The notes: a model not told the origin generated them from the letters alone. A stretch of DNA of 64,000 bases from Minisyncoccota bacterium (GCA_937936355.1 CALDDM010000002.1:93173-157172); one strand, 5' to 3'; positions 17,765 through 49,439 are shown, numbered from the stretch's first letter. A program made the numbers and translations.

Positions 17765-18367
17765 ATGCCAGAAATTCTTGAAGTATTGATGGGATCTCGA
17801 TCACGTGCGCGAATTATGCGGTTTTTTGTTTTGAATCCTGGCAAGGAGTTTCTTTTCGCTGAGATCAGAGAAAAAACACAAACATCACTTGGTGATGCTC
17901 GTCGGGAGATCGCTGCTTTTGAAAAGATTGGTTTAGTAAGCGTTGGAACGCGTGATCGTAAAAAGATCTACTCAATTAATGAGGGTTTTGTGTATTTTAA
18001 TGAGCTTCGTAATCTTTATGTGAAGTCGAATGTCTATCCTCAGTGTACTGAAGTAAGGAATATTAAGCGTATTGGTAGTGTGAAGCTTGTCATGATTAGT
18101 GGTGTTTTTATGAACTATTCTCGTTCCGAAATTGACCTTTTGATTGTTGCTGATGATACGAGTCGTACAAAAATAGATAGTTCAATCGCAGCTATTGAGG
18201 CAGAGCTTGGCAAAGAGGTTCGCTACATGCTCCTTCGTTCTGAGGATTTTCAATATCGTCTTGATATGATGGATCGTTTTCTGATAGAATTTTTTTCTGG
18301 TCCGCATGATGCCATTATTAATAAAGTTCCTCGCCTTAGTCGTTTTATCTCTGAGATGAAGCGCTAG
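17765..18367 (+). CDS. winged-helix (ArsR-like) transcriptional regulator with uncharacterised C-terminal domain
   Basis: 200 aa. N-terminal SRSRARIMRFFVLNPGKEFLFAEIREKTQTSLGDARREIAAFEKIGLVS fits a wHTH pattern. Confidence 0.5.
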   Translation: MPEILEVLMGSRSRARIMRFFVLNPGKEFLFAEIREKTQTSLGDARREIAAFEKIGLVSVGTRDRKKIYSINEGFVYFNELRNLYVKSNVYPQCTEVRNIKRIGSVKLVMISGVFMNYSRSEIDLLIVADDTSRTKIDSSIAAIEAELGKEVRYMLLRSEDFQYRLDMMDRFLIEFFSGPHDAIINKVPRLSRFISEMKR

Positions 18368-18395
18368 TCGTTTTTTCTGTGATTATTCTTGTCTT

Positions 18396-19535: not shown

Positions 19536-19619
19536 AATGGAGTTTCGAGTATTGGTTATGATGTGTTACCATGGGCGTCATAGCATAGATTTATTTAGGT
19601 CTTTATGGAGGGAGTAATC

Positions 19620-20012
19620 ATGGATCATTATCGCAGACGCTTGAAGCGTTTTGGTATGCCGCAGCGAGAAAATACTGCGTTTTTTGATAATGCTATTGTA
19701 CAAATCGTCTCTATAGCTGTAGGGGTTCTTATGATTGTTGCTTTGGGTGTTTTGATGTTACGTTTTTCTCCAGACCTATCTTCAGTGCGATTGCAGTACA
19801 GTATATATTTTGGTACGGCTTTGCGTGCACAATGGTGGAGTCCGTATGTCTTGCTCGCGATGGGTTTGATTTTTTATCTTGCAAATCTTGGGGTTGCAAG
19901 TGTGTTGTATAATGCAAAACAAAGAATTGCTGCGTATAGTTTGCTCCTGGGTGGTTTTTTTATACAAATTTCTCTCCTTGTTAGTGTGATCAGCATTTCG
20001 CTAAATAACTGA
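19620..20012 (+). CDS. small integral membrane protein, unknown function
   Basis: ORF 19605..20012 with 3 hydrophobic helices. GGAGGG lies 7 nt upstream of ATG 19620, so that start is preferred. Confidence 0.45.
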   Translation: MDHYRRRLKRFGMPQRENTAFFDNAIVQIVSIAVGVLMIVALGVLMLRFSPDLSSVRLQYSIYFGTALRAQWWSPYVLLAMGLIFYLANLGVASVLYNAKQRIAAYSLLLGGFFIQISLLVSVISISLNN

Positions 20013-20125
20013 TTCTTCTCCTTAGTTTGGCGCCACCGCTTCGCTTTCTCTTTCAAAATATTTATACAAGTAGAAGGTAGCTCCTCGTGCTAAGAATTGT
20101 AAAGTTTTGATTTAAAAGAAATTTC

Positions 20126-21814
20126 ATGAAATTTTCTTTCCCGAGTCCAAAGACTGACAATGCAAAGGATTATCGTAGGCAGCGTTCACTTGAGGTGATT
20201 CCCGCGATTCTTACATGGACTACGCTTATTGGTATGGTTGCTTTTTCTTATTTCACACCAGTCGCAGTTGCGATTTTTATTATAGCTTTTGATATTTATT
20301 GGATTCATCGGACTGTCTTTATTTCCTACTATTCAATTAAAGCGTATCGGAGACTTAAAAATGACCAAAAAATTGATTGGTTTGCTCGATGTAAGGGGGT
20401 TGAAGACCTTTCTTTGTATAAAGATATCATAAAAGATCGGATTCTTTCTAATTGGAAATTGCGCAAGCATGCAACTCGTGAGGAGGGTAAGCGTTTGCGT
20501 GTCATGCTTTCGCAAGACAAGAAGCTCCTTCTTGACCTTGAGGAATTGCAACAAGAAGATGTTATGGCATGGGAGGATGTGATTCATGTTGTGATGTTGC
20601 CCACTGCTACTGAGTCAGCGCTTAATATAGATCCTGCACTTGAGGCTATTGAAAAAAGCCGCTATCCGAATGAGAAAATTATTATTCTTTTGGCTACGGA
20701 GGAGCGCGAAGACCTAGTTAAGCGTGAGGAGAAGGTTCAATTTCTCACGCATAAATATAAGGATGTTTTTGCAGATTTTATAGTTTCAGTTCATAGGGTT
20801 GCAGATGGTGAGATGAAGTGTAAGGCTTCTAATGCTACGTATGCAGCAAAAAAATTACAAAAATATCTTGATGAAAGAGGTATTGATTATAAGCGCGTCA
20901 TTCTTTCAAATTTTGATTGTGAAAGCGTTGCCCATCCCGAGTATTTTGGAGCTTTGACGTATGCATATATTACTGAGCCAAAACGTCTGCAACGCGCATA
21001 TCAACCAATTCCTTTGTACCACAACAATCTGTGGGAAACGAATGCTTTTGTACGAGTAATTGTTACAAGTTCTTCTTTTTGGCACATGTTTCAAAGTACA
21101 CGGCGTGAAATGGTAACTTTCTCTTCTCATGCGGAAGCGTTTGATACTTTGGTTAAAGTTGATTTTTGGCCAGTTGATATGATTAGTGAGGATTCGATAA
21201 TCTATTGGAAGGGTTATGCATACTTTAATGGTGACTACGCAGTGAAACCGCTTTATGTTCCTGTTTCTATGGATGCTGTCCTCGCTGAAACATACTGGAA
21301 GACAATTGTTAATCAGTATAAGCAAAAGCGTCGCTGGGCGTATGGCATCGAGAATTTTCCAATTATTATGCGGGCGATTTGGCCAAACAAAAAAATACCG
21401 ACTTTTGAGAAAATTCGTATCGGCTTTGAAATGCTCGAAGGCCATCACTCATGGGCAACATCTGCGCTGATGCTTGCACTTCTGGGATGGCTTCCTCTTA
21501 TTTTTGGTGGTCCAGAGTTTAATGAGTTAACGCTTGCTCATAATCTACCCCTTGTAACTCGTTACCTTATGACGATTGCAATGTGTGGATTGATTGTTTC
21601 TGTCGCTCTATCTTTTCTTCTGCTACCGCCACGACCTGAGCATTTGTCGCGAAAGCGTTATGTTTATATGGCGACACAGTGGCTTCTGGTTCCTGTTATC
21701 GCACCTCTTTTGGGTGCTTTGCCTGCTATTGAGTCGCAGACACGTATTTTATTGAAGAGGTATTTCACAGAGTTTTGGGTTACAGAGAAGGTTGTTAAAA
21801 AAGTTGTGAAGTAG
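20126..21814 (+). CDS. membrane-embedded processive family-2 glycosyltransferase (cellulose/chitin-synthase-like)
   Basis: 562 aa. N-terminal 2 TM and C-terminal about 4 TM. Cytoplasmic GT-A core with FDCES, SEDS and the Q(x2)RW motif (QKRRWAYG). Confidence 0.7.
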   Translation: MKFSFPSPKTDNAKDYRRQRSLEVIPAILTWTTLIGMVAFSYFTPVAVAIFIIAFDIYWIHRTVFISYYSIKAYRRLKNDQKIDWFARCKGVEDLSLYKDIIKDRILSNWKLRKHATREEGKRLRVMLSQDKKLLLDLEELQQEDVMAWEDVIHVVMLPTATESALNIDPALEAIEKSRYPNEKIIILLATEEREDLVKREEKVQFLTHKYKDVFADFIVSVHRVADGEMKCKASNATYAAKKLQKYLDERGIDYKRVILSNFDCESVAHPEYFGALTYAYITEPKRLQRAYQPIPLYHNNLWETNAFVRVIVTSSSFWHMFQSTRREMVTFSSHAEAFDTLVKVDFWPVDMISEDSIIYWKGYAYFNGDYAVKPLYVPVSMDAVLAETYWKTIVNQYKQKRRWAYGIENFPIIMRAIWPNKKIPTFEKIRIGFEMLEGHHSWATSALMLALLGWLPLIFGGPEFNELTLAHNLPLVTRYLMTIAMCGLIVSVALSFLLLPPRPEHLSRKRYVYMATQWLLVPVIAPLLGALPAIESQTRILLKRYFTEFWVTEKVVKKVVK

Positions 21815-21934
21815 TTGTAATGTAGATCACGATATTTTTTCGAAGTAATGCGAGAAATTTTTTGGTAGTGACTTTGCATTTTCTTTGAAATATCTTTATA
21901 CTTGTACGTTATTCTAACTGGGTCACATCGTTTT

Positions 21935-22984
21935 ATGTCTCTTTATCTCCCAGCCTTTATTGCTTCTTTTTTTCTGACAACCTTTTCCCTGATTGTCATG
22001 ATTATCGCTCTCTATCGATTTCCTCGGCTTCTCAGCCTTTTTCGTGTGCCTATCGGATTACGGCATCTTGATTCAAGGAGAGCTGTGCGATGTGGCGGTA
22101 TTGCTATAGCAGTTGGTTTTTTTGGTGCAATTTTTTTTGAGCATCGCCTCGTTATAGATGCGCAGACTGAATTTTTTTTGATTGGAGCTTTACTTTTTAC
22201 TTTGTGGGGTTTGCTTGATGATTTCTTTGCGCTTTCGTGGCGTATTCAACTTCTTTTACAATTTGCTACTGCTGTACTTATTGGATCTTTGGGTGTGCGC
22301 ATTTTGGGTGTTGACTTTATGGGTTGGATTGATTTTTCTGCTGGTAGTCTTTTTGACTTATTGGGAGTGCTCTCTCTTTCTCTAACTGTTTTATGGATTG
22401 TTGGCTTGCTGAATGCACTTAATTGGAGTGATGGAGTTGATGGTCTTGCCGGTGGTGTTGTTGTGATCGCTGGCTTTACGCTTTTCTCTCTTTCTTTAAG
22501 GGAGGAGGTTTATCAACCACCGATAGCAATTTTATGTGCAGCGCTTTTTGGTGCTGCGTTGTCATTTACGTTGTTTAATATAGCTCGGTTTACACCGTTG
22601 AGATTGCCATTTCGTTTTATTGCAGGATCTTCTGGCTCGTATATGATGGGTTACACATTGGCGGTTCTTGCAATTTTTTCTGGAGCTAAAATTGGAACCG
22701 CTCTTCTTGTTATGATCGTACCTCTTGTTGATGCTTTGAGTGTCATTTATGATCGTGCTCGTAGTGGTGTGAGTCTTTTTCGTGGAGATGCTCGACATTT
22801 TCATCACATACTGATGTCCCATGGATGGAGCACATCCCGTATTTTGATGCTGTACTATGGATTGACCCTTTTTGGGTCTTCACTGGCGTTGACCACCCAA
22901 TCAACTGGTAAAATTACAGCATTTATTTTGTATGCATTTGTTTTATTTTTTGTAATTAGCTTCGTACGGAAGAAAACTTTATGA
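21935..22984 (+). CDS. polyprenyl-phosphate N-acetylhexosamine-1-phosphate transferase (MraY/WecA family, GT4)
   Basis: ORF 21902..22984. Multi-TM. LLDDFFALSWRIQL and NALNWSDGVDGLAGG signature motifs. ATG 21935 is preferred over TTG 21902. Confidence 0.85.
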   Translation: MSLYLPAFIASFFLTTFSLIVMIIALYRFPRLLSLFRVPIGLRHLDSRRAVRCGGIAIAVGFFGAIFFEHRLVIDAQTEFFLIGALLFTLWGLLDDFFALSWRIQLLLQFATAVLIGSLGVRILGVDFMGWIDFSAGSLFDLLGVLSLSLTVLWIVGLLNALNWSDGVDGLAGGVVVIAGFTLFSLSLREEVYQPPIAILCAALFGAALSFTLFNIARFTPLRLPFRFIAGSSGSYMMGYTLAVLAIFSGAKIGTALLVMIVPLVDALSVIYDRARSGVSLFRGDARHFHHILMSHGWSTSRILMLYYGLTLFGSSLALTTQSTGKITAFILYAFVLFFVISFVRKKTL

Positions 22985-23406
22985 AAGTACCCTCTTTTAT
23001 TTTTGCTTTTGTTTTTCTTACTTTGTTTCTACTCTTTACTTTGATCACTCCTTATACGGATCGCCTTTCCTTGGTTGGCGGTAGTCTTTTGTTTATACAG
23101 ATTCGTGACACACAGCCAGAGTGGTCGCGTGGTTTATCTGGCCGGACTGATTTGTGCAAATATTGTGGCATGCTTTTCATTTTTCCTGTAGCTTCTGAGC
23201 GCGGGTTTTGGATGAAAGATATGCTCTTTTCCATAGATATGGTGTGGCTTAAGGGGGGCTCAATCGTCCATATTGAGGAAAATGTTTCACATAAGACTCC
23301 TGAGAAAGTATACAAGCCTCCCGTCTTTGTTGATGCAGTTCTTGAACTTCCGTCTGGTGGGGCTGCCAGACGCTCTCTGGACATTGGTGACACGATACGT
23401 TTCTAA
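22981..23406 (+). CDS. DUF192 domain protein
   Basis: 141 aa with an N-terminal TM/signal. FWMKDMLFSIDMVWL...VLELPSGGA is typical DUF192. The start overlaps the upstream stop (ATGA), implying translational coupling to the GT4 gene. Confidence 0.75.
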   Translation: MKVPSFIFAFVFLTLFLLFTLITPYTDRLSLVGGSLLFIQIRDTQPEWSRGLSGRTDLCKYCGMLFIFPVASERGFWMKDMLFSIDMVWLKGGSIVHIEENVSHKTPEKVYKPPVFVDAVLELPSGGAARRSLDIGDTIRF

Positions 23407-23509
23407 TGCAGACTTGTTTGACGATTTTCCCTTATGTTGTAAAATGTAAACTATACTTTACATCTTTAGCGTTTTTTTGGAGGCGTTATCTTTTAAAAAA
23501 TATACTATT

Positions 23510-24247
23510 ATGTTGCATTCTGATATCCATACATTTGACGATTCTGGTGATGTCCTTTCGTCGTGTGCGCAGCATCTTTCTCAACTTCTTGCTCGTTACC
23601 ATGATCGGGAAATTTTTCTCTTAATTTCGGGTGGTAGTGTCTTGGATATCCTGGACGTGATTCAGGCTGATTATGTTGGTCCTCACGTGCGAATGTGCGT
23701 TATTGACGATCGGCATGGAGTTGCAAAGGCGGATCAAAATTATTATCAACTTTCACAGACTGACTTTGCGAGTAAGTTCATTGTGGCTGGAGGTATGGTG
23801 TGTGATACCAGCTTTGATGATTCGAGGAGTCTCGAGGCATCTGTAAATCTATTTAGCGCACACATAAAAGGCATTGTTGATCGTAAGCGTTGTGATGATT
23901 CTGTAATAATTTCAGTTTTGGGTATAGGCTCTGATGGTCATACTGCTGGTATTATGCCTTATCCAGGCGAGGAGCTTTTGTTTTCTGAGCTCTTTGATAG
24001 TGCGCGTGATGATTACGTTGTAGGCTATGATGCCGGTGACAAGAATGTATTCCCTTACCGTGTTACAGTAAATATGCGGTTTTTGCGTGAAGTCCCTTCG
24101 CATTGTATTGTGTATGCTGTAGGATCTGAAAAAGAAAAAGCTTTACATGAAGTTTTGAGTGACTCATCTGAGCTTAATGTTTTTCCCGCTCAAATTATTC
24201 ATGACATGAAGGATGTTTATCTTTACACAGATCAGCGCATTCGTTAG
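23510..24247 (+). CDS. pgl: 6-phosphogluconolactonase-like (glucosamine-6-P isomerase/6PGL family)
   Basis: ORF 23477..24247. LISGGSVLDIL and VLGIGSDGHTAGIMP motifs. ATG 23510 preferred. Confidence 0.7.
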   Translation: MLHSDIHTFDDSGDVLSSCAQHLSQLLARYHDREIFLLISGGSVLDILDVIQADYVGPHVRMCVIDDRHGVAKADQNYYQLSQTDFASKFIVAGGMVCDTSFDDSRSLEASVNLFSAHIKGIVDRKRCDDSVIISVLGIGSDGHTAGIMPYPGEELLFSELFDSARDDYVVGYDAGDKNVFPYRVTVNMRFLREVPSHCIVYAVGSEKEKALHEVLSDSSELNVFPAQIIHDMKDVYLYTDQRIR

Positions 24248-24323
24248 TTGTTTTTATTTATATCAATTGCCTGGACTATATGATCTAATATATGAGATTA
24301 TTTATTTATCAATTTGAATTATT

Positions 24324-25205
24324 ATGCGACCAAAAGAATTAAAAACTAAAATCTTTCTTGATAGTGGGAATCCAGCAGAAACAAAGGAGGCTTTGGGTTT
24401 GATAGGCTTTCTTGATGGGCAAACAACTAATCCATCATTAATCGCTAAGCATCCAGATGCTCAGAAGCGAATTTCTTCTGGGGATCGCTTTAGCGTTTCT
24501 GAGGTTCGTCTTTTTTATAAGGATATTGTACATGAGATCGAGTCTTTGCTTGAACATAATGCTTCTATTTCTATAGAAGTGGCCGCCGATGCTACTACCA
24601 AAGCGGCTGAGATCATCGCACAAGCTCATGATATGAGAACATGGGTAGCACACCCTCATATAAAGATACCTATTACGCATGAGGGTTTGGTTGCTGGTGA
24701 GCAATTGATTGAAGAGGGGATTCACTTAAATTACACGCTGAATTTTTCGCAGCAGCAAGCTGCTGCTGTGCATGCTGCCTCGAGAGGCAGTGAATTCGAG
24801 CAGGTCTACATCTCACCCTTTCGTGGTCGGCTAGATGACAGCGGTGTTGCAGGCGCACATGTGATTAACAATATTCAGGACGCATATGCCTTTATATCTT
24901 CTCCTGTTGGTGTTCTTGTTGCGAGTGTGCGTGATTATGAGACCTTTTTATATGCATTGTACAGAGAGGTTGATATCATAACAGTTCCCTTGAAGATACT
25001 TTCTCAATGGTCTGTAGATGACTTGCAGGTTCCTCACCACATGGATGATCCATCTTATGGCAAGGAAACTGTCTTTATACCTAAGGAAGACTTAGACTTT
25101 GATGCACCATGGCAGTCATTTGACTTGTCCCATCCAAAGACAGATGAGGGGCTGGTGAAATTCGCTTCAGATTGGGCAAAAATTGTCGATGTTTCTATGG
25201 AATAG
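24324..25205 (+). CDS. tal: transaldolase
   Basis: 293 aa. KIFLDSGNPAETKEA...DGQTTNPSLI and HIKIPIT (Schiff-base Lys context). Confidence 0.85.
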   Translation: MRPKELKTKIFLDSGNPAETKEALGLIGFLDGQTTNPSLIAKHPDAQKRISSGDRFSVSEVRLFYKDIVHEIESLLEHNASISIEVAADATTKAAEIIAQAHDMRTWVAHPHIKIPITHEGLVAGEQLIEEGIHLNYTLNFSQQQAAAVHAASRGSEFEQVYISPFRGRLDDSGVAGAHVINNIQDAYAFISSPVGVLVASVRDYETFLYALYREVDIITVPLKILSQWSVDDLQVPHHMDDPSYGKETVFIPKEDLDFDAPWQSFDLSHPKTDEGLVKFASDWAKIVDVSME

Positions 25206-25251
25206 TTTTAAGATTTTTTCAATACACCTTTACTACATATTATTTCTGCTT

Positions 25252-26508
25252 ATGAATTCTCCGTATACTAATGCCCTGGAGCAGCTTGATCGTGTTGCTT
25301 CGATCATGGAATTGAATAAACAAACGCATAAGCGATTACAGCTGCCTGAAAAGTTCCACGTCGTTTCTATTCCTGTTGTGATGGATGATGGAGAAGAGAG
25401 AATTTTTATAGGATATCGTAGTCAGTACAATAGTATCTTGGGCCTCTATAAGGGCGGTATTCGTTTTGCGAGTACGGTTGATAAGGATGAGGTGAAGGCT
25501 CTCTCTTTTTGGATGACAATTAAGACTGCTGCTGTTGGGTTGCCTTTGGGTGGTGGAAAGGGGGGTGTTATTGTTGATCCTCGAGGTATGAGCGAGGGTG
25601 AGTTAGAGCGTTTAAGTCGTGGTTGGGTGAAGGCACTTTTTGATGTGATTGGTCCGCGACAAGATGTGCCGGCACCTGATGTTGCTACTAATCCACGCAT
25701 CATGGGTTGGATGACTGACGAGTATTCCAGGATTGCTGGCGAAGCATCACCAGCAGCCTTTACGGGTAAGGATGTGAAAGATGGCGGTATTGTTGCACGC
25801 AGCACATCGACTGCACGTGGTGGATTTTATCTGCTCGAGAAAATTAGGAAGGATAGTGGTAAAGAGCCAGGGGAGATGCGTGTGGCTATCCAAGGGTTTG
25901 GCAATGCTGGTTCATTTTTTGCAAAAATTGCATATGATGCTGGGTATAAAATAATAGGTGTTTCTGATTCTCGTACCTCTGTGATGAGTCAGGGTGGCGC
26001 TGGATTTGATCCGTACGAAGTGCAGAAAATCAAGGAGGAGCAAGGTGCCTTGCAAAATGTGGATGTGCATGATGCGGATGGTGCTGCGTTGCGTGTTGGG
26101 CAACCTCTGGATGTTTTGGGTATGAAGTGTGATGTTTTGGTTCCAGCTGCTGTAGAGAATCAGATTACGCAGGATAATGTTGAGAATGTTGTTGCGCCTT
26201 TGGTTATCGAATTGGCAAATGGTCCAACTACACCAGAGGCTGATCGGATACTTTTTGAGCGAGGCACCTTGGTTGTGCCTGATGTCTTGGCAAATGCTGG
26301 TGGTGTTATTGTCTCCTACTATGAATGGTATCAAAATATTAATGATGAGCAGTGGACTGAGGATGAGGCCAATGAAAAGCTTCGCTTGCAGATTTCACAT
26401 GCTCACAGTTCGATTGAATCTATTGCGCAAGAGTATAAGTCTTCCCTGCGTGATGCTGCATATATTTTTGCATTGCGCGCGTTAGACGATGCGCTACGGA
26501 AGGGATGA
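25252..26508 (+). CDS. Glu/Leu/Phe/Val-family dehydrogenase, most like glutamate dehydrogenase
   Basis: ORF 25183..26508. YKGGIRF, PLGGGKGGV (catalytic Lys region), and Rossmann GFGNAGSF. ATG 25252 (MNSPYTNALEQL) avoids overlap with tal. Confidence 0.88.
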   Translation: MNSPYTNALEQLDRVASIMELNKQTHKRLQLPEKFHVVSIPVVMDDGEERIFIGYRSQYNSILGLYKGGIRFASTVDKDEVKALSFWMTIKTAAVGLPLGGGKGGVIVDPRGMSEGELERLSRGWVKALFDVIGPRQDVPAPDVATNPRIMGWMTDEYSRIAGEASPAAFTGKDVKDGGIVARSTSTARGGFYLLEKIRKDSGKEPGEMRVAIQGFGNAGSFFAKIAYDAGYKIIGVSDSRTSVMSQGGAGFDPYEVQKIKEEQGALQNVDVHDADGAALRVGQPLDVLGMKCDVLVPAAVENQITQDNVENVVAPLVIELANGPTTPEADRILFERGTLVVPDVLANAGGVIVSYYEWYQNINDEQWTEDEANEKLRLQISHAHSSIESIAQEYKSSLRDAAYIFALRALDDALRKG

Positions 26509-27630: not shown

Positions 27631-28347
27631 ATGGCTAATTTTAATACGCACATTACGATCGCGGCGGCAGGTGCTGGTTTGGCTAGTACCGCCCTTTTTA
27701 AGGCTGGTTATGCCAGTGCGCCTGAAGCACTTGTCCTTACACTCGCTGGGACAATTGGAGGGATTTTGCCAGATGTTGATCTGAAGTATTCTTATCCGAG
27801 TAAGATTATTTTTTCGGTTTTGGGTACACTTATCGGCTTACTTGCTGTTTTTTCTGTGCAGCGTGATGTGAGTGTGGTGGAGTTGTGGGTTTTTGGCTTG
27901 CTTGTTTTTGCTGTGATTCGCTACCTCTTGTGGGGTGTGTTTCATAAATTGACGGTTCATAGAGGTGCTATTCATAGCGTGGCAGCTGGTGTCTTTTTTT
28001 CTCTTGCAACCATAAATCTCAGTTATCATATTCTTGGGCATGACGCAGCCTTTGCGTGGTTTTTGGGATTTTTCATTTTCTATGGCTTTTTGATTCACCT
28101 TATTCTTGACGAGCTCTATAGTGTTGATTTTATGAATCATCGCGTGAAGCGTTCATTTGGCACTGCTTTGAAAATTGTTGACTTGCGTAAGCTGCCCAAT
28201 AGCTGTCTCATAGTGGGACTTTCTGTTTTCCTGTGGTTTCTTGCGCCTGAGAGCGAAGCTTTTGTTGAGGCTCTACTTAATCCTACGAATCGTGATTTTT
28301 TTCGAGACGACTTTTTGCCGAGATTTGAGCAGGGATTTCTGTATTAA
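27631..28347 (+). CDS. YdjM/DUF457-like membrane-bound metal-dependent hydrolase
   Basis: ORF 27628..28347. Multi-TM with conserved-looking ILPDVDL and HRGAIHS motifs. Confidence 0.65.
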   Translation: MANFNTHITIAAAGAGLASTALFKAGYASAPEALVLTLAGTIGGILPDVDLKYSYPSKIIFSVLGTLIGLLAVFSVQRDVSVVELWVFGLLVFAVIRYLLWGVFHKLTVHRGAIHSVAAGVFFSLATINLSYHILGHDAAFAWFLGFFIFYGFLIHLILDELYSVDFMNHRVKRSFGTALKIVDLRKLPNSCLIVGLSVFLWFLAPESEAFVEALLNPTNRDFFRDDFLPRFEQGFLY

Positions 28348-28416
28348 TGTGGTAATTTGGAATACGAAGATGTCATCATTATTACTATACTCAGATTTGC
28401 TTGTTGATACTTTTAC

Positions 28417-28444
28417 TTGACAAAATTGTGAAAATATGTAAAAT
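28417..28444 (+). promoter_or_regulatory. near-consensus sigma70 promoter (unit 1 of the secreted-protein island)
   Basis: TTGACA 28417-28422, a 16-nt spacer, then TG-TAAAAT ending at 28444. It shares the extended pattern TTGACAAA...ATATGTAWAAT with the promoters at 29290 and 30621. Confidence 0.65.
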
Positions 28445-28522
28445 GCTTATAGCTACTCCGTCAGAGGGTGGCATGTTGTTTAATATTTTTCCCTAATGAT
28501 GAGCATAAGCTCGGAGTGATAA

Positions 28523-29230
28523 ATGAAAAGAACTATATTTACAGTTGCGGTAGGTGTGTTGATTGTGATGGGTTGTGAAGGGCAACAGCAATCACAACCC
28601 GCCACACCATCACAGGCTGAGAGACCCGTTTCACATGTGGGAGGGGTTTGTGACGCAGATGGAAATTGCGCTTCAGATTCGCAATTAGATACGAATAACT
28701 ACAGAAATTTATCTAATGAAGGTTTTCAGAATCAGCCATCAGTGCAATCACGGGGTGGTGGTTTCGCCTCGGCTCCTCGGATGCAAGAAATTGTAGCACC
28801 GCAGGGCGCTGACTACACACCACCTCAAAAACCTCGATCAAAAGGATTGTTGCGAGGCTTGAAAGAATCCGTTTCAAAAAATTTTGGCTTCCCTGAAGGT
28901 GAGACATGGCCTGAGCTTCGCAACAGGTTCATTACGCCTTCCTGCCAGAGAAAGGAGCATTATGGTGGGGGCTTTACTTACCATGGTCGATGTCAGGACT
29001 ATGTGGATGGTCAATTGCGTAAATGGCGTGACGAGATGGTCCTCGCTCATCGAGGTAAGCATCCTCAAAGAAAAACTATTACTGACGTGGATCGAGACTT
29101 CAAGAACGCTGCAAAGCAGCATATACAGAATTTAAGATGTGATGCTCAGAGTGATAAAGACTTCTGGGAAAATGGCATCAACGCAGGTTGTGGTGTAGGA
29201 TCACAACAAGGCGGCTTTAACGAAAAATAA
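28523..29230 (+). CDS. secreted lipoprotein-like, Cys/Gly/Gln-rich, unknown family
   Basis: 235 aa. Signal peptide with a lipobox-like LIVMGC. 9 Cys in the full 235-aa ORF (8 after the lipobox Cys). GGAG 6 nt upstream of the ATG. No motif I recognise. Confidence 0.6.
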   Translation: MKRTIFTVAVGVLIVMGCEGQQQSQPATPSQAERPVSHVGGVCDADGNCASDSQLDTNNYRNLSNEGFQNQPSVQSRGGGFASAPRMQEIVAPQGADYTPPQKPRSKGLLRGLKESVSKNFGFPEGETWPELRNRFITPSCQRKEHYGGGFTYHGRCQDYVDGQLRKWRDEMVLAHRGKHPQRKTITDVDRDFKNAAKQHIQNLRCDAQSDKDFWENGINAGCGVGSQQGGFNEK

Positions 29231-29245
29231 TTAGAAAACAGCCGG

Positions 29246-29273
29246 CGCCCTCGAGATTCTCGAGGGCGTTTTC
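29246..29273 (+). terminator. rho-independent terminator
   Basis: GCGCCCTCGAG-ATT-CTCGAGGGCG forms a 10-bp GC-rich stem, followed by TTTTC. Confidence 0.8.
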
Positions 29274-29289
29274 ATTTGGGTTTGGTATA

Positions 29290-29318
29290 TTGACAAAATA
29301 TATATTTTATGTAACAAT
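29290..29318 (+). promoter_or_regulatory. sigma70 promoter (unit 2)
   Basis: TTGACA 29290-29295, a 16-17 nt spacer, then TGTAACAAT. Confidence 0.55.
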
Positions 29319-29390
29319 CATCTCACAATCTACATATAAAAGGTAGATGGTATAGAGTTATTTTACATTTTATCCCAACGGAGATTTATC

Positions 29391-30101
29391 ATGAAGTTTC
29401 TGCACTTCCTCATTGCCGCTCTTGTTGTTGCACTTTTGTATCCGCTTATGAATTCAACTGTGACAACCTCAATAGATCACGGTAGTCGTATCGCTGAGAA
29501 TTTTGCTACGCAGGGGACGCAGTTCCTCGCAAGTGTACTTAATCTTGGCTGGGTTATATTGCTTTTTTTGCTTTTTTATAACCTTTTGCCGAGAGTACAA
29601 AATGTTCTTAAGTCCGCCTCTCCTGGTGGAAAAGCGCGGAATTCGAAGGTTCTTGAGCCCATTATGTATGTTCTGACTTGTGCGGCAATGCACTTTTTTG
29701 TTTTCATACCGTATTTTGAGAATTTCATCAGTCATTTTTCTGTTGATTCTCGATACAGAGCTTATGTCTATATTTTTACCCTTTTGATTACATCATACGT
29801 TGTCTATAAAGTTATTGACTGGATCCTTGATCACATTGGTGTGTCAATAGGCCTCGCGCTTCTTGCGGTTGGTGGGTATTTGCTTTATGGCTTTGGAGGG
29901 CTTCCCTCCGGTCTTGCAATACCCCCGGTAAGTGGTGTGAATTTTGACAGTATTTCCCAATTTTTGCGAAATGCCTCTCAGGGTCCATACTTCAAGTATG
30001 TGTTGATTGTGGTAGGTATTATAGCTTTGCTGTTTGTTTTACCTAAATTACTCAAAGGAAGGGGAGAAAGGATGTTAAGTAGATTACGACGGAATCGCTA
30101 A
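29391..30101 (+). CDS. polytopic membrane protein, unknown family
   Basis: 236 aa with about 6 hydrophobic helices and a basic C-terminal tail (KGRGERMLSRLRRNR). ACGGAG 7 nt upstream of the ATG. Confidence 0.55.
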   Translation: MKFLHFLIAALVVALLYPLMNSTVTTSIDHGSRIAENFATQGTQFLASVLNLGWVILLFLLFYNLLPRVQNVLKSASPGGKARNSKVLEPIMYVLTCAAMHFFVFIPYFENFISHFSVDSRYRAYVYIFTLLITSYVVYKVIDWILDHIGVSIGLALLAVGGYLLYGFGGLPSGLAIPPVSGVNFDSISQFLRNASQGPYFKYVLIVVGIIALLFVLPKLLKGRGERMLSRLRRNR

Positions 30102-30161
30102 AAGAATGAAAAGAAATTTTGCGAGATTGTCTATTCCTTCACTTGATTTTTGGAGAAAAAA

Positions 30162-30557
30162 ATGACGCACGTTATTGGCGTTCTACTAGTATTACTCTTT
30201 CCTGTGCTAACATTAAAATCATACAGCTTAGGTCGTGATCTGCATGCGGTGTATTTTGCAACAGCTTCTCTTATAGTGCTTGTGATGCTGATTATAGTTT
30301 TTACGGGTGCCAGACAGCTTACAGCGATGGATATGGGTAAGTTTCTGATGTCTATTATAATCACTCTTGGTGTTTTCGCTGGTGCCCTTTTTGTAGGTGT
30401 TTCTCAGTTACCGGCAGTGATCCTGGCAATGATTGCCCTTGTCGTTGTATCGATACGGACATTTACAACGACGCCACATCCCCCGAAAGAGGTGGGGGAA
30501 GATGAAGAACAAAAGTTACTTGAATATAAGCCATCAGATAATTTTATAGACAAGTAA
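30162..30557 (+). CDS. small 4-TM membrane protein with acidic tail, unknown family
   Basis: ORF 30150..30557. GGAG 6 nt upstream of ATG 30162. Confidence 0.5.
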   Translation: MTHVIGVLLVLLFPVLTLKSYSLGRDLHAVYFATASLIVLVMLIIVFTGARQLTAMDMGKFLMSIIITLGVFAGALFVGVSQLPAVILAMIALVVVSIRTFTTTPHPPKEVGEDEEQKLLEYKPSDNFIDK

Positions 30558-30572
30558 GAGAAAGATATGTGT

Positions 30573-30600
30573 GCCGCCTGAAATCAGGCGGCCATTTTCT
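30573..30600 (+). terminator. rho-independent terminator
   Basis: GCCGCCTG-AAAT-CAGGCGGC followed by CATTTTCT. Confidence 0.8.
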
Positions 30601-30620
30601 ATGCTTTTTTCAGTCTTGAC

Positions 30621-30648
30621 TTGACAAATATTAGAAAATATGTATAAT
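30621..30648 (+). promoter_or_regulatory. sigma70 promoter (unit 3)
   Basis: TTGACA 30621-30626 (preceded by a second overlapping TTGAC), a 16-nt spacer, then TATAAT 30643-30648. Confidence 0.7.
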
Positions 30649-30770
30649 TCTGATATCTAGAAAATTATAAGAAAACTAGATGTAGTTGTTTAATAATGTA
30701 GTAAAGTGATAGTGCACCATAGTGGTGCTTTTACCCCAAGAAACGAGTCTCCGGGCTCGGAGGTTAAAAA

Positions 30771-31100
30771 ATGAAAAGATATATAAGAAAGACGCTGATT
30801 TCACTGATTGTGATTGTAGGCATGACTGGCATTGCGCAAGCATCTTGTCCGAAAGGTTTTACGCAATCGCAATGTGATGCCGATAAAATGCCGGCATTTG
30901 GCGCGGGTGTAAATATAGATCGTGATGAGATCGCGCGAAGATGTGCGCACTGGCTACAAAAGATCCAGAATGCACCAGATCAGCGAGCTCGTCATTATTA
31001 TGAGATTTATCATGCTAGCTGCCAGCAAGCAGTTCTCGAAGAGCAGTTTAGTGCTGGCGGATGGACGATGGGCCAGCCGTACAATGGTCAAGGAAACTGA
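30771..31100 (+). CDS. small secreted 4-Cys protein, unknown family
   Basis: 109 aa. Signal peptide MKRYIRKTLISLIVIVGMTGIAQA|S. GGAGG 7 nt upstream of the ATG. Confidence 0.55.
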   Translation: MKRYIRKTLISLIVIVGMTGIAQASCPKGFTQSQCDADKMPAFGAGVNIDRDEIARRCAHWLQKIQNAPDQRARHYYEIYHASCQQAVLEEQFSAGGWTMGQPYNGQGN

Positions 31101-31101
31101 T

Positions 31102-31374
31102 ATGAAAAATAAATCAAAACAACCTCTTGATTGGTCTGAAGGCTTTAAATTTGCACTCAAAGAAACAACGAAGGCGGCGATTATTGTTGCAGTTTGCGTA
31201 GCTTTGGCACTTTTTTTGTTTTCTGATGTATTGCTCGCTAGTGAATATGGAAGTGGTCTTCCTGGTGAAGACATGCGAAATGCCATTCTCGGGAAAAATT
31301 GGCCTAAGTGGGTTCCAGGTCTCATGATCTTTGGTTTTATTTGCGCTGTTATACATGGTCTCTTTAGAAAGTAG
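31102..31374 (+). CDS. small 2-TM membrane protein, unknown family
   Basis: Internal ATG of ORF 30922..31374, 1 nt after the upstream stop (TGATATG). Product MKNKSKQPLDWSEGFKF... The N-terminal part of the track ORF overlaps the preceding gene out of frame, so it is rejected. Confidence 0.5.
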   Translation: MKNKSKQPLDWSEGFKFALKETTKAAIIVAVCVALALFLFSDVLLASEYGSGLPGEDMRNAILGKNWPKWVPGLMIFGFICAVIHGLFRK

Positions 31375-31422
31375 GCACCTGTATCTGATAGGCAATGATC
31401 AAATTTAAATGGGATTAAGAAA

Positions 31423-31806
31423 ATGAGAAAAATTCTTATCATTCTGGCGCTTTGTGTTGGCGTTATCTATGGTGAAAAAGGAGACGGTCCTGCTACGAGC
31501 TTTGCAGAAAGCGTGGTACCGACTGTGGAAAAATTACTTTTACCGATTGCGAGCTATCTCGGTCAAAAGAACTATACTGATCAGCGTGTAGCACAAGATG
31601 CTCGTTCACCTGTAACAGATTATCGTACTGCTCAGCAGTCGGGTAATGCAGGGTGGGGCTCTGTGCAACAAAGTACATTCTGTGAATGCATACGGATGTT
31701 TGTTGCGCAGAACAGTCATGTATACTCCTCTAAAACGGAGTTGCTTGATACAGCAGTTTCTTACTGCGAATATGACTTTGGGCCACGGACGGCCTGTCGA
31801 TTGTAA
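31423..31806 (+). CDS. small secreted Cys-containing protein, unknown family
   Basis: 127 aa. Signal peptide MRKILIILALCVGVIYG. 4 Cys in the C-terminal third. Confidence 0.5.
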   Translation: MRKILIILALCVGVIYGEKGDGPATSFAESVVPTVEKLLLPIASYLGQKNYTDQRVAQDARSPVTDYRTAQQSGNAGWGSVQQSTFCECIRMFVAQNSHVYSSKTELLDTAVSYCEYDFGPRTACRL

Positions 31807-31857
31807 GGATGCACTATTAGAAAAAGAATAATAAGATAGACAGAAAAGATTAAATTC

Positions 31858-31889
31858 GCAGCCAGTGATTCACTGGCTGCTTTCTTTTT
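31858..31889 (+). terminator. rho-independent terminator
   Basis: GCAGCCAGT-GATTC-ACTGGCTGC forms a 9-bp stem, followed by TTTCTTTTT. Confidence 0.85.
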
Positions 31890-31951
31890 GTTGCATTTAA
31901 CTTTATTCTCCGTGATACAATGGATAATTATAAGTCTTTCATGTGACAGCT

Positions 31952-33784
31952 ATGGAGAGGATGTTGCAGCCACTTCTAGACCGCGAGAATTTGACTACGC
32001 CAGCCCAGGAGGGTTTAGATGTTTCTGCACGGAAGAATTTGGCATTTTCTTTGGATCGATCAGGCACTGATCATTTCCCGCGTAAAAAAAATGAAGCTCG
32101 ACATGAGCATCGGACGTTGCTGTATGAAAAAGAGTGGCGTGCTGCTGAGGATTTGTGGTCACTCTATGAATACATAGAGAGTTTGCAGGATGAAAATCTC
32201 GAAGAGATTTCAATTGGTTTGCGTGGAAAGATTCTTGAAGCTCTGGAGGATCGAGATGTGCCGTTTATGCGGTGGCAGGAATATCGTGCTGTTCGTGGAT
32301 CATATAATGATGGAGAAAGTTCTCCAGAAGTGAGTCATCGGTACAAAGAATTACGAAAAGATCCTGATATTTGCTTTAAGGAGCATCTCGCTGGTTTTTA
32401 TGAGAATATAATGGGGAAAGCTGAGACTGTTGCGCGCATCAAAGCCTTGCCGTACGAGGAACAGGTTACGGAAATCGCAAAGATTATTGGTGAGGGTCTT
32501 TTTGAGTCAGGCTCAGGGGATCATGAAAAGAGATTGGCTTATGTGCGAGAGTTGATTTATTCTATGCCCAATAGAATTCTCATCGAATATTTTGACGTCG
32601 ACTATGAGGAGGGCATAGAAGAGGTCTTATCTGGAGATTGGGCGAATAATCATACTGTGCAAGAGCTGGTTTTTCAAGCGCTTGATATTCAGGATGTAGA
32701 TTTTTCTGGCGTCAATGTAGATGTGCAAGTGGGTAATTTGCCAAATAGGGCGCTTGGCATACAATTTTCAGAATCTCCCATAACGTTGTTGAAGGACTTA
32801 GATCAAGTGGAACGATCTTCTGAGGTTCGTCTGCATGAGCATTTACATAATTATTTGGAGTTTTTACAGATGGGGAGCCTGCCGTATGTAGAAAGATTTT
32901 TTTCCGCTGTAGAATTTGATGTTACAGATGAGTTGAGCGTGCTACGAGCACGTGATCATTGTATGGAGAAGCTGCGTGCTATAGTGCAGGATTTATCTGA
33001 AGAGTTTTTGGTACAAATGGGAGGTGACCCGCAGAAATTTATGCAGGCTTTGACTGTTTATGTCGAAGAATTTCTAGAGGTTTTGGAGTCTGATGTTGTG
33101 CGGCAGGACTTGACTGATGAAAAGCTGGTTGTCGCGCAGTTGGGTCTGGATCGAGAAAGGGCTGCAGAAGACATCAAAGGACAGTTAAAAGACACTTTTC
33201 AGTATTACGCTGATACGTTTTATGTCGCTCAGAAATGTGATGTTCTTGATGAGGTGTGTGGTCTGACAGTTATTCATCATGCTGGTAATCCTGAGCGGAT
33301 ATTTAAGGCATTGGCGCATGAGGTTGGTCGTAAAAAAGCACTTCTGTTGCGTCAGGTGCGCGCTCTTGAGAGTCCGGAATTCTTTGAGAATGATGGTGGC
33401 TTTGGTGAATTTGGCACAGGGTATGATTTCTCAGATCCTCGTAAATGGTTTCAGGACGAAGAGTTTCTCCAAGGTGTTGTAAGGGATGTGCAGGGGATTT
33501 CAGGAGAGGAGCGATCATTTTTTTCGCAGATAGAGATTGACCCTAATAGTGTGATCTCACGAGAGGTGATGCCAGAAATTACAATTGAGGATTTTGAGCG
33601 TACGCAGTCTGCAATGGATCAGCTGAAAAGTCTTGGTTTTATGCCGCAATTATACGAGTATGTCCATGAGCATTATGATGATTTGTTGCAGGAACAAGAA
33701 GGTCAGGAGGGTGTCTCCGAGCAATCTGCGCACTTATTAGATGACTTAGAAGATGGCTTAGAGCTTGGTACGCGGAAATACTAA
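31952..33784 (+). CDS. large acidic cytoplasmic protein with a single HExxH motif, unknown family
   Basis: ORF 31943..33784 (GTG 31943; ATG 31952 or 31961 are possible starts). No signal peptide or TM. Strongly acidic. Motif RLHEHLHNYLEF at about aa 295-306. Extended -10 TGATACAAT at 31913-31921. Confidence 0.5.
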   Translation: MERMLQPLLDRENLTTPAQEGLDVSARKNLAFSLDRSGTDHFPRKKNEARHEHRTLLYEKEWRAAEDLWSLYEYIESLQDENLEEISIGLRGKILEALEDRDVPFMRWQEYRAVRGSYNDGESSPEVSHRYKELRKDPDICFKEHLAGFYENIMGKAETVARIKALPYEEQVTEIAKIIGEGLFESGSGDHEKRLAYVRELIYSMPNRILIEYFDVDYEEGIEEVLSGDWANNHTVQELVFQALDIQDVDFSGVNVDVQVGNLPNRALGIQFSESPITLLKDLDQVERSSEVRLHEHLHNYLEFLQMGSLPYVERFFSAVEFDVTDELSVLRARDHCMEKLRAIVQDLSEEFLVQMGGDPQKFMQALTVYVEEFLEVLESDVVRQDLTDEKLVVAQLGLDRERAAEDIKGQLKDTFQYYADTFYVAQKCDVLDEVCGLTVIHHAGNPERIFKALAHEVGRKKALLLRQVRALESPEFFENDGGFGEFGTGYDFSDPRKWFQDEEFLQGVVRDVQGISGEERSFFSQIEIDPNSVISREVMPEITIEDFERTQSAMDQLKSLGFMPQLYEYVHEHYDDLLQEQEGQEGVSEQSAHLLDDLEDGLELGTRKY

Positions 33785-33789
33785 CCGTA

Positions 33790-33822
33790 GCGCGGTAGGT
33801 TCTGCTTGATAATGGACCGCGC
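33790..33822. terminator. hairpin between convergent genes (putative bidirectional terminator)
   Basis: GCGCGGT-N19-ACCGCGC forms a 7-bp GC stem, followed by ATTTTAT. It fills the 41-nt gap between the two stop codons. Confidence 0.45.
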
Positions 33823-40359: not shown

Positions 40360-40388
40360 TTGACAAATTTTTGTATGTATGCTATATT
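40360..40388 (+). promoter_or_regulatory. near-consensus sigma70 promoter driving a non-coding unit
   Basis: TTGACA 40360-40365, a 17-nt spacer, then TATATT 40383-40388. Confidence 0.65.
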
Positions 40389-40395
40389 ATCTAGT

Positions 40396-40669
40396 CATGC
40401 AAGGCGGGCCCGCTCTCCTTGATCTGACATACTTTACAAATGGTTTTTTTGACTCTGTAGGCATGCTTGGGTATTCTATCTTTTTATCTAAGTATTAGAA
40501 TGTCATGTCCAGATCGGGTAGGGTGGTTCCGGCTGCGCTATTCCTCGACGGGCCTTCTCCCTATGTTCTTGCTTACCAGCTCCATGGGTTGTGTCTACAG
40601 TGTCTAGATTGCCATTTCCTGCAGAGAATAGTCTTGCGTCTTACTCAACCTTTTAGGTTGAGTTTTTTG
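40396..40669 (+). ncRNA. candidate structured ncRNA (~270 nt), family unassigned
   Basis: Bounded by the promoter above and a terminator CTCAACC-TTTTA-GGTTGAG+TTTTTTG (40644-40669). No ORF over 35 codons and none with an SD. Locally GC-rich segments sit in an AT-rich spacer. A 5' hairpin GUCAUGCAAGG[CGGGCCCGCUCU]CCUUGAUCUGAC is possible. A long-range 9-bp helix CTCTGTAGG (40453-40461) / CCTGCAGAG (40618-40626) is possible. Confidence 0.45.
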
Positions 40670-42603: not shown

Positions 42604-45600
42604 TTAAAGCATTGTGACGCGACGGACCTCCTCTAGCGTTGTTTCGCCGCTCAAGGCTTTCAGGAGGCCATCTTCTTCTATGGTGATCATACCTGTTTCT
42701 TTGGCAACGGATTCTATGTCACTTGCAAGAGCTCCTCGCATTATTGCGCTAACGATTGCATCATTTAATACAAGGACTTCGCTGAGAGCTATGCGACCTT
42801 TGTAGCCAAGGCCATTACATTTTGCACATGATCCTGGTGTATACGTTGTTCCTTCTGTTATTTTTGGGATCGTAACCTTGGGATTGCTTGCTACGCGATC
42901 GAGGAAGCTTGTGATGATTGTTTGCTCTTCCTGTGTAAGTTCGCGATTTTGTTTGCATGAGCAGAGTTTGCGTACTAGGCGCTGAGCGATGATGGCGTTG
43001 AGCGATGCTGTGATGTCATCCCGCGAGAGATTTAAGTTTTCGAGTCTGCTCAATGTTGCGATTGCGCTGTTGGTGTGTAGTGTGGAGAGGACAAGGTGTC
43101 CTGTCTGCGCTGCGTCTGTTGCTGTGCTGGCAGTCTCTGTATCCCGAATTTCTCCAAGGAAGATTACATCGGGGTCTTGTCGCAAGAGTGAGGTCAGTGC
43201 ATTTGCAAATGTGTAGCCCTTTTCTGTATTTACCTGTGTCTGTAATATTCCAGGAATCTGATATTCAATTGGATCTTCAATGGTGATGACTTTGATTGCG
43301 TCTGTCGCTATCATTTGCAGGATGCTGTAGAGTGTTGTGGTTTTTCCTGATCCAGTTGGACCGGTATTGAGAATCATGCCATGAGGTTTACGTACTTGTT
43401 GCATGATACGCTCTTGGTTATATGGTGTGATTCCAAGCTCGCTGATGTCTGTATGAATTGCATCGCTTGTTAGTAGTCGCATTACTACTGTTTCTCCAAA
43501 TCCGCCGACGATGATTGAGACACGAACATCTGCCGTTGCTTCTTTTGTCTCATCGAGACCTTCATAAAAAATACCGAAACGACTGTCGGTTACGCCTTGT
43601 CGTGCAGTTGTTGGTATGTTTGCGAGTACTTTGATCTCCCCAAGGATCTGCTGAAAACTTGTTAGCTCTATTGACGCGATTGTTTGTAGTGTGCCATCGA
43701 TACGCAGGCGAATTTGTACGTCTTTGTCATTTGGCTCAATGTGGATGTCACTTGCGCGTAAGTGTGTTGCATAGCCTATGATTTGAGGTAATACATTACT
43801 ACTGGTTGCTTGTGCTATGGTTGTTTGCATCTCACTGATACTATTTGCTTTTTGGGATGCATTTATAGTGTGCTGTTGTGAGATGGTGAGTCGTTTGGTT
43901 AAGGTTTGTGACATGAGGCTGTCGTAGAGATCTTGAATCATGCCTGATTCGGATGTGACACGCCACACCTCATCGATCGATGTGGATCCTTCAAGTGCTT
44001 TTAAGATACCATCTTGTGTCATTGTGACGAATCCTTCTTCAATTGCTTGCTTGGTGAGCTCTGCTTCGCCATGCATCTCAAGAATCATTTCTTCTAGTTT
44101 GTCACCAATTGTGAGTGCCTCAAAAATCCCAATACGTCCTTTGTATCCACTATCCCCACACTTCACGCAACCAACTGGCCTGTAAAGTGTTGTAATAGTT
44201 TTTGGTGTTTCAATCTCCGCTTTTGGTGAGATGAGGCTTATCATCTTCATCAATGTTTCTGCTACTTCTTGTGCTGGTTCATATGTCTGTTTACAGTGTT
44301 TGCACAGTTTTCGCACAAGGCGTTGTGCGAGAAAGATGTCAGATGCTGACGGTATTAGTGTTGGTCGAATTCCCATCTCAGTAAGGCGGGCTATGGTGCC
44401 AATTGCTCCATTGGTGTGGAGTGTCGAAAGGACAAGGTGTCCTGTGAGCGCTGCACCGAGCGCTACTTCTGCCGTTTCCTCATCGCGGATCTCTCCCACA
44501 AGGATAATATCTGGATCTTGTCGTACGATTGATCGCAAAGCATTTGCGAATGAGAAGTCTTGATCATGCGTTGCTTCTGTTTGAACAATTCCTTCGATTT
44601 GATACTCAATTGGGTTTTCTATCGTAATGATTTTGTTTTGTTCATTGGTCAGGTGCTTTAGTATGCTGTAGAGTGTTGTGGTTTTTCCTGATCCAGTTGG
44701 TCCTGTTGTGAGGATGAGGCCGTCAGTTTTTCCAAGTGCACCCATAAGGTCCTTGTGGGCTTTTCCTCTGAGTCCAAGGCTCTCTATAGAGGTTGTCATA
44801 TCGCCACCGAGGACGCGCATCACGATGTTTTCTGATTTCTTTCCCGGAATGATGCTCGTTCGTATGTCTACCTTTTTCCTGCTTGTCGTGTTGTCTTGTG
44901 CTTGTTCCTCGATATCAAAAGAAAAGCGACCATCCTGCGCTTCGCCTCGGATGTTAATTTTCATACTACTCATCAGCTTGATGCGCGAAACGATCGTAGG
45001 GAGGTTTGCGAGTGGGATGTGCACGACATCTTTGAGTAGTCCGTCAATGCGATAACGTAATCGAACATGATCTGTTTGAGGTTCAATGTGGATGTCACTT
45101 GCCTCTAGTGCGATTGCACCTGTTAAGATGATGCTGAGAATTTCTGTTGTTGAGAGTGATTCGATATCCTTTGAGAGTTTGAGGAGTTTGCCAGTGCTTG
45201 CCTCAAAAGCTTTTAGGTCGGCGCTCCCCAGGGATAAGCGCATCGTGTCGAGCTTGTCCGTGATGAGTACGTTTTTGTAGATGTTGAGACCTTTTTGCAA
45301 TGAGGCTCCTGAGATTACTGTGAGCAATACTGTGACGCCTTGGTTTTGTTCCAGGTTTTCAATGTGTTTTAGTAGACGCTTGTCTTCTGGTTTGCTTGTT
45401 CCGAAGTGGAGTTTGCGACCACTTTTGTGAAAGCAAATGACATTTAAATCGTGAGCGATGTTTTCCGGTATTAGAAAGATATCCTCTGTGGATAGTGGTG
45501 TGATGTTGAGGTCGGCGTATGGTAGGCCAAGTTTATTTGCGAGGCGCGCTGTGTACTGTTCGCCGCCCTTTTTGCGCATGCGTGTGATTTTGTCTGTGAG

Positions 45601-49419: not shown

Positions 49420-49439
49420 ATAAATAAAGGAGATTTGAT

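Follow-up and report, generated by a model that had tools for sequence, protein, structure and literature searches.

Phage morons are defined by a promoter and a terminator of their own, and their products are often lipoproteins or small proteins of the inner membrane, with their site of action at the envelope (PMC3594210). Many hotspots of horizontal transfer hold no recognizable mobile element, and their genes turn over through recombination at the core genes on either side (Oliveira et al. 2017, PMC5635113). Here, we describe a block of genes that resembles both, located in 64,000 nucleotides (nt) of DNA from a Minisyncoccota bacterium (GCA_937936355.1 CALDDM010000002.1:93173-157172; source run, ERR9287626; this whole stretch is referred to as the window). 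Seven plus-strand open reading frames (ORFs), P1 to P7, occupy a 5.4-kb interval (28.4 to 33.8 kb) between a ydjM-like gene and a gene for a giant LTD/PKD surface protein (Table 1). The new result is that this island is absent from the same site in the two nearest related genomes; we recognized no system-level function in it. The reading that we favor, and that we give about an even chance of being right, is that the block is a lineage-specific accessory islet at a gene-turnover hotspot, with moron-like envelope cargo carried in independently expressed units.

Using YebC, we scanned 185,579 species representatives and found no close genome, as the best matches had 45 to 47% identity and came from many different phyla. 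When metagenomes were scanned with YdjM, 49 loci emerged, only two of which (L082, from metagenome Ga0114957, and L084, from Ga0209187) kept the local synteny. YdjM identity was at most 54% in the 47 other loci, which we set aside; the seven with the highest identity were inspected and had unrelated neighborhoods, and tblastn detected no flanking-gene homologue in the remaining ones. In L084, where YebC (72% identity), YdjM (57%), bPH_2 (72%), RuvB (79%), and a small membrane-protein ORF (55%) are all present, the ydjM stop codon lies 2 nt from the LTD-gene stop codon, and the island is absent. In L082, the closest relative (78% identity in YdjM and 72% over 665 amino acids [aa] in the C-terminal half of LTD), a single unrelated ORF of 127 aa on the opposite strand (875-1258, −) lies between ydjM and the LTD gene. 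No Pfam family matched this ORF, and it is not similar to any of P1 to P7. The blastn alignments between the window and its relatives end at the ends of the flanking genes, and no remnant of P1 to P7 was found by blastn, tblastn, or phmmer in any of the 49 loci.

The ydjM/LTD junction therefore holds seven genes in the window, one in L082, and none in L084. That L082 carries a different orphan ORF at this position indicates that the junction is variable, and because ydjM sits by the LTD gene without the island in both relatives, the island can be viewed as an indel at a variable junction. The term "island," proposed in a first-pass annotation made from the sequence alone, is thus literally true, with both syntenic relatives lacking the whole block. 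The same annotation had counted a lack of conservation in relatives against its proposal, and the genes are indeed missing from L082 and L084; unlike them, the small hypothetical ORFs in the flanks are conserved in L084. The LTD protein is 41% identical to that of L084, versus 72 to 79% for the neighbors YebC, bPH_2, and RuvB, and by this measure the giant gene evolves much faster than the genes around it. The L082 LTD gene (1279-3306; L084 counterpart, 3753-8693) has one apparent in-frame stop near 2479.

Table 1. Features of the island and its two flanking genes (positions counted from the first nucleotide of the window)
Feature	Position	Strand	Basis or remarks
ydjM-like membrane protein gene	27631..28347	+	Pfam YdjM, E = 5e-10; conserved left flank
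Unit 1 promoter, TTGACA-16-TAAAAT	28417..28444	+	11/12
P1, 235 aa, predicted lipoprotein	28523..29230	+	Lipobox VAVGVLIVMGC, Cys18
Unit 1 intrinsic terminator	29244..29270	+	12 pairs, 8 G:C, T-rich tail
Unit 2 promoter, TTGACA-17-AACAAT with TG extended −10	29290..29318	+	Promoter scan, 10/12
P2, 236 aa, integral membrane protein, ~6 hydrophobic helices, basic C terminus	29391..30101	+	Hydropathy
P3, 131 aa, membrane protein, ~4 helices, acidic C-terminal tail	30162..30557	+	Hydropathy; in unit 2 with P2
Unit 2 intrinsic terminator	30573..30592	+	8 pairs, 7 G:C
Unit 3 promoter, TTGACA-16-TATAAT, then 122-nt leader	30621..30648	+	12/12
P4, 109 aa, predicted Sec-secreted, AQA/S site (cut after AQA)	30771..31100	+	4 Cys in 85-aa mature part
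P5, 90 aa, two-helix membrane protein	31102..31374	+	Start 1 nt past P4 stop
P6, 127 aa, predicted secreted, short signal peptide	31423..31806	+	4 Cys in C-terminal 40 residues
Unit 3 intrinsic terminator	31858..31880	+	10 pairs, 7 G:C, TTTCTTTTT tail
Putative P7 promoter, extended −10 TGaTACAAT	31913..31921	+	Read from sequence, directly 3′ of terminator 3
P7, 607 aa (613 aa from GTG 31943), acidic, predicted all-helical cytoplasmic	31961..33784	+	ORF; HEHLH at residue 292
GCGCGGT...ACCGCGC hairpin	33790..33822		Read from sequence, in 41-nt gap between convergent P7 and LTD stops
Giant LTD/PKD surface-protein gene, 1453 aa	33826..38187	−	Pfam LTD and PKD; conserved, fast-evolving right flank, convergent

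To the absence of the island from relatives we can add the absence of relatives of its proteins. No significant Pfam, NCBIfam, PHROGs, or PADLOC family was found for any of P1 to P7, and PDB sequence searches with P1, P4, P6, and P7 returned no relative, in agreement with the first-pass annotation, which had recognized no family for any of the first six. Larger protein collections were queried with P1, P2, and P4 to P7. An exhaustive phmmer search with P7, P1, P4, P6, and P5 concatenated, against 1.84 billion representatives of ~15 billion public proteins, gave the five self matches alone; for the proteins of 90 to 130 aa, the E-value threshold used excludes only relatives above roughly 35 to 40% identity. 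A word-indexed search of 5.8 billion clusters likewise gave self matches alone for P2 and P7. All seven proteins form singleton clusters at 90% identity, their sources being one NCBI/ENA contig (164 kb) and one Logan assembly. No paralogy was seen among the island proteins or between them and any window ORF. By these searches, the island encodes orphan proteins with no detectable relative in the public collections searched, which for P3 were those of protein families, viral contigs, phages, and plasmids. About a third of the other window genes also lack Pfam domains.

By intrinsic criteria, P1 to P7 are real genes and compositionally native. We scored reading frames with a codon table built from 41 other window genes, and the annotated frame was the best in seven of seven ORFs (f0, −3.87 to −4.09; background, −3.86 to −4.08). 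Each ORF is preceded by a Shine-Dalgarno site. The GC content is 0.40 to 0.44 in the island versus 0.41 to 0.45 in the flanks, and in tetranucleotide composition the island deviates less than average from the window mean (distance z = −0.97). The comparison of windowed GC and codon usage with the flanks, suggested in the first-pass annotation, thus leaves the island indistinguishable from the rest of the window. All seven ORFs lie where that annotation had placed them, six genes of 90 to 236 aa and one for an acidic protein, and the same calls were made by an independent gene caller on the contig of a second assembly. As this contig is 100% identical to the window across 20.7 kb, including both island junctions, misassembly is unlikely. 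Three starts differ in the public NCBI/ENA annotation (P4, 92 aa; P5, 96 aa; P7, 613 aa); for P4 and P5, the starts used here have better Shine-Dalgarno sites.

The ORFs fall into four transcription units, namely, P1 (unit 1), P2-P3 (unit 2), P4-P5-P6 (unit 3), and P7 (unit 4). We scanned the 24- to 40-kb region for promoter-like and terminator-like sites and searched both strands of the whole window for T-tailed hairpins. The three best plus-strand, sigma-70-like promoter sites in the scanned region are those at 30621, 28417, and 29290, in that order (the last scoring 10/12 plus TG), and its three best terminator-like hairpins are those of the island (29244-29270, 31858-31880, and 30573-30592). 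In all 64 kb, no T-tailed hairpin on either strand other than these three reaches 7 G:C pairs (next best, 5). Three promoters and three terminators alternate exactly around the ORF groups of units 1 to 3, with the terminators placed 14 to 52 nt past a stop codon and 20 to 30 nt ahead of the next promoter. The earlier description of insulated transcription units with unusually strong signals is therefore borne out. With a strong promoter, ORFs with Shine-Dalgarno sites, and a very strong terminator, each of units 1 to 3 would be expressed and insulated independently, and this layout should keep transcription from running on into the convergent LTD gene. The extended −10 element of P7 has no good −35 and is not among the promoter-scan matches. 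Past P7, the hairpin at 33790 may serve as a weak terminator.

All three island promoters open with TTGACAAA. A shared promoter pattern had been pointed out before and is present at all three sites, but it is not specific to the island, since it is the general strong-promoter type of the genome; the TTGACAAA −35 form is also found in look-alike intergenic promoters at 40360 and 49392. The promoters of units 1 and 3 match at 35 of 44 nt (80%; 28412-28455), whereas 15 to 28 nt match in the window's 35 other strong-promoter pairs. This similarity suggests common descent or a common operator. Because the two promoter regions are near-duplicates, units 1 and 3 probably share regulation. The leaders of the units are 72 to 122 nt long and fold modestly (z-scores, −2.3, −0.7, and −1.9). 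Given these modest scores, we make no claim for a riboswitch or attenuator in the leaders. No Rfam family was found in the whole window or, at a permissive threshold, in the island.

Six of the seven products are predicted to localize to the envelope. The first-pass annotation had described three proteins with signal peptides and Cys pairs and three small membrane proteins, and both groups stand: P1 has a lipobox, P4 an AQA/S site, and P6 a short signal peptide, and hydropathy gives P2, P3, and P5 about six, four, and two helices, respectively. The P1 lipobox fits the PROSITE PS51257-type pattern, which P4 and P6 do not. It is followed in P1 by a low-complexity linker rich in Q, S, P, and G and then by a helical C-terminal region, in which there are three pairs of Cys; the single-sequence AlphaFold2 (AF2) model of P1 is too poor for use (pLDDT 45). 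The signal peptide of P4 hinges on the start at 30771, which has a strong GGAGG Shine-Dalgarno site, as the NCBI/ENA form begins 17 codons later and has no signal peptide. Cysteine makes up 3.2%, 4.7%, and 3.6% of mature P1, P4, and P6, respectively, versus 0.76% of the 41 other window proteins (maximum, 2.6%). On the basis of the lipobox, signal peptides, Cys enrichment, and membrane-helix counts, P1, P4, and P6 are predicted to be exported and P2, P3, and P5 to be membrane bound, which fits a role at the envelope or the surface. The surface function suggested earlier is supported to this extent, as far as localization goes; no component shows a system-level function.

How does the island compare with the systems introduced above? 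Like the phage morons HK97 gene 15 and lambda bor and lom, it is extra DNA relative to its relatives, has a promoter and a factor-independent terminator for each cassette, and is predicted to encode small membrane proteins and a lipoprotein. It differs from them in having no phage or prophage context (the flanks are GDH, YebC, YdjM, LTD, bPH_2, and RuvB), in having the same GC content as its surroundings, and in consisting of four tandem units, with a cytoplasmic protein of 607 aa as the product of one. The island thus falls short of a moron in two tested respects, its phage context and a deviant GC content. No PHROG match was significant, and the island proteins queried (P7, P1, P2, and P3) had no match in viral contigs, phage records, or plasmid records.

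The likeness to hotspots without mobile elements is that zero, one, or seven genes lie between the same flanks, that no integrase, tRNA, or repeat accompanies them, and that the cargo has no assigned function. Recombination and repair genes also lie near the island (ruvB and the yebC/ruvC region). Such hotspots were defined in well-sampled species, whereas the host of the island belongs to an uncultured small-genome lineage represented here by three genomes. The island has no integrase, transposase, or recombinase domain, the window has no tRNA, and no flanking direct, inverted, att-like, or terminal inverted repeats were found beyond chance-size matches. By integrase, tRNA, repeats, and composition, it is therefore not a classical genomic island.

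If the block is an accessory islet, recombination at the conserved genes on its two sides may have brought it in, from an unsampled relative or from a mobile element of similar composition. One gain in the lineage of the window would, among three genomes, be more parsimonious than two near-precise losses. Its units, like morons or hotspot cargo, would be extra genes that are expressed independently and probably at high levels, and the products might decorate or modify the envelope, with a role in attachment to a host or partner or in the exclusion of phages or competitors.

Several points weigh against the accessory islet. The block lacks an integrase, a transposase, a tRNA, and flanking repeats, phage genes are missing from its vicinity, and no homologues of the island proteins were found. 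GC content, codon usage, and tetranucleotides are like those of the rest of the window, so there is no compositional mark of foreign origin. The same strong promoter type is predicted to drive unrelated short transcripts at 40360 and 49392, and the strong signals may be a mere mark of highly expressed native genes. The syntenic relatives number only two, both of them short metagenome contigs, and it is parsimony that decides between a gain and repeated loss. An envelope-modifying role, in turn, is drawn from predicted localization.

Alternatively, the locus could be ancestral, P1 to P7 being native, fast-evolving envelope genes that were deleted independently in L082 and L084 and that look like orphans because their clade is thinly sampled. 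In favor of this, the island is fully native in composition and codon usage, its promoters belong to the general type of the genome, and the adjoining LTD gene is itself fast evolving (41% versus 72 to 79%). Sampling is very thin, the nearest of the 185,579 species representatives reaching only 45 to 47% identity in YebC. We nevertheless consider an ancestral locus unlikely. It requires two independent, near-precise deletions, one leaving the L084 stop codons 2 nt apart and the other leaving a different ORF in L082, and metagenomes that do hold relatives of the flanking genes hold no homologue of the island proteins, including one as long as P7.

Sec-dependent bacteriocin and immunity loci occur in monoderm bacteria. 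The island might likewise consist of toxin or bacteriocin and immunity modules, as the first-pass annotation had speculated, with P4 and/or P6 (and perhaps P1) as exported proteins directed against bacteria or a host and with P5 and P2/P3 as the cognate immunity proteins. The P4-P5 pair resembles such a locus in layout: a small signal-peptide protein with disulfide-capable Cys, followed at a distance of 1 nt by a small membrane protein. Sec-secreted Cys-rich proteins and small polytopic membrane proteins are interleaved along the island, and presence or absence varies among relatives, as is common for toxin loci. However, units 1 and 2 do not show such a pair: the secreted protein of unit 1 lacks a membrane partner, and the membrane proteins of unit 2 lack a secreted one. 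The pairing is incomplete, and the layout is nonspecific. Mature P4 (pI 6.2) and P6 (pI 5.3) are neutral to acidic, not cationic, unlike most bacteriocins. No toxin, immunity, bacteriocin, transporter, or defense domain was found in Pfam, NCBIfam, PHROGs, or PADLOC, the island has no sequence or profile similarity to Sec-dependent bacteriocin loci and no transporter or regulator of their kind, and there are no polymorphic-toxin hallmarks or paralogous cassettes. The toxin-immunity idea is accordingly left without support from domains or charge, and we regard it as quite unlikely.

A bolder proposal is that the seven orphans form one self-contained, envelope-acting system of ultra-small bacteria (candidate phyla radiation [CPR]-like), recently acquired from an unsampled mobile element. 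Such a system would combine disulfide-bonded exoproteins, cognate membrane partners, and a cytoplasmic metal-binding protein with HEH motifs, and it could function in host-cell attachment or exploitation or in the exclusion of phages or competitors. We see this as a long shot.

P7 had been described as a very acidic cytoplasmic protein with a lone HEHLH motif and its own extended −10 promoter, and the description holds: the protein has 607 to 613 aa, a pI of 4.56 (124 D+E versus 63 K+R), no hydrophobic segment, and TGaTACAAT at 31913. The motif invites the reading of P7 as a new metallopeptidase of the zincin (HExxH) type, or a new metal-binding enzyme, with a role in processing or regulating what the island exports; the envelope genes adjoin its own. 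Its single HExxH (residues 292 to 296 of the 607-aa form) lies inside a predicted helix, as in zincins, with Glu at 4 and 15 positions past the second His. HEH tripeptides occur at residues 48, 292, and 569, three versus ~0.06 expected from composition. Their helical surroundings are alike (HEHxxx[LY]L), and their excess is an unexplained oddity; a search of P7 for internal sequence repeats found none, including around these tripeptides. On the other hand, HExxH turned up in 5.5% of 20,000 composition-preserving shuffles of P7 and is compatible with chance, and no third ligand or fold of the zincin type is identifiable. Peptidase profiles (Pfam and NCBIfam, E ≤ 1) gave no family and PDB (phmmer, E ≤ 10) gave 0 matches, and the single-sequence AF2 model (pLDDT 41; pTM 0.24) is too poor for fold comparison. 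P7 is, moreover, predicted to be cytoplasmic and its putative substrates exported, and with its own promoter past a strong terminator it is not transcriptionally coupled to them. The HExxH of P7 is most likely a chance motif. The metalloenzyme suggested earlier has neither profile nor structural backing beyond this motif, and we find it very improbable.

That some or all of the ORFs are chance ORFs in a noncoding or misassembled stretch is scarcely credible: although no homologue was found and the starts of P4, P5, and P7 differ between two gene callers, the correct frame has the best codon score throughout, the ORFs are exactly framed by Shine-Dalgarno sites, promoters, and terminators, lipobox, signal-peptide, and membrane-helix features are coherent, and two assemblies give the identical sequence.

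The window itself is ordinary chromosome. YidC, DnaA, and DnaN are encoded at 1948-6732, together with a cumulative GC-skew minimum, which indicates that the window starts at the replication origin; the island is on the leading strand, at a distance of ~25 kb. Other window genes encode PBP1, RmuC, TAL, GDH, YebC, RuvA, RuvB, RuvC, PolA, a MurE-like protein, FemAB, and a fused double PilB. The gene content, together with weak best matches to Paceibacterota and Patescibacteria, suggests a Patescibacteria-like host. The fused protein (42604-45651, −; 1,015 aa) joins two T2SSE (PilB-type) ATPase domains and an MshEN domain. RuvC is directly beside YebC in L084 (1238-2749) and ~13.7 kb from it in the window (12524-13033 and 13283-26508). 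The block between them in the window contains a PLD-like gene, an 887-aa orphan, RmuC, a GT4 glycosyltransferase, DUF192, a 6PGL-like gene (Glucosamine_iso domain), TAL, and GDH. Judging by gene order, YebC thus has a larger insertion or rearrangement on its other side as well.

Two short units of one design lie elsewhere in the window. The first (40360-40668, +) is a candidate conserved small RNA, with a predicted transcript of ~270 nt bounded by the strong promoter at 40360 (TTGACA-17-TATATT plus TG) and, at 40643-40663, by a terminator. By blastn, the core of this unit (40441-40608) shares 86% identity with L084 12092-12261 (~90% by eye), and the neighboring coding genes are 71 to 79% identical. 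The promoter hexamers are conserved in L084, the RNA fold z-score is −3.4, and a 48-aa ORF overlaps the unit; no Rfam family matched 40360-40668. The second (49392-49667, +) has a TTGACAAA-type promoter at 49392 and runs for ~255 nt to a terminator-like hairpin with a T-run (49648-49667). It has no ORF of at least 120 aa on the plus strand and no Rfam match.

The island adds seven orphan protein sequences to those known, one of them of 607 aa. Its practical value is limited pending more genomes, expression data, or confident structures, and it makes no long-standing question directly testable. If the accessory-islet reading is true, however, the locus would show on a small scale, and cleanly, how new envelope functions are gained by a streamlined and poorly sampled bacterium, with ready-to-express cassettes entering a hotspot beside a fast-evolving giant surface gene and with no visible mobile-element machinery.

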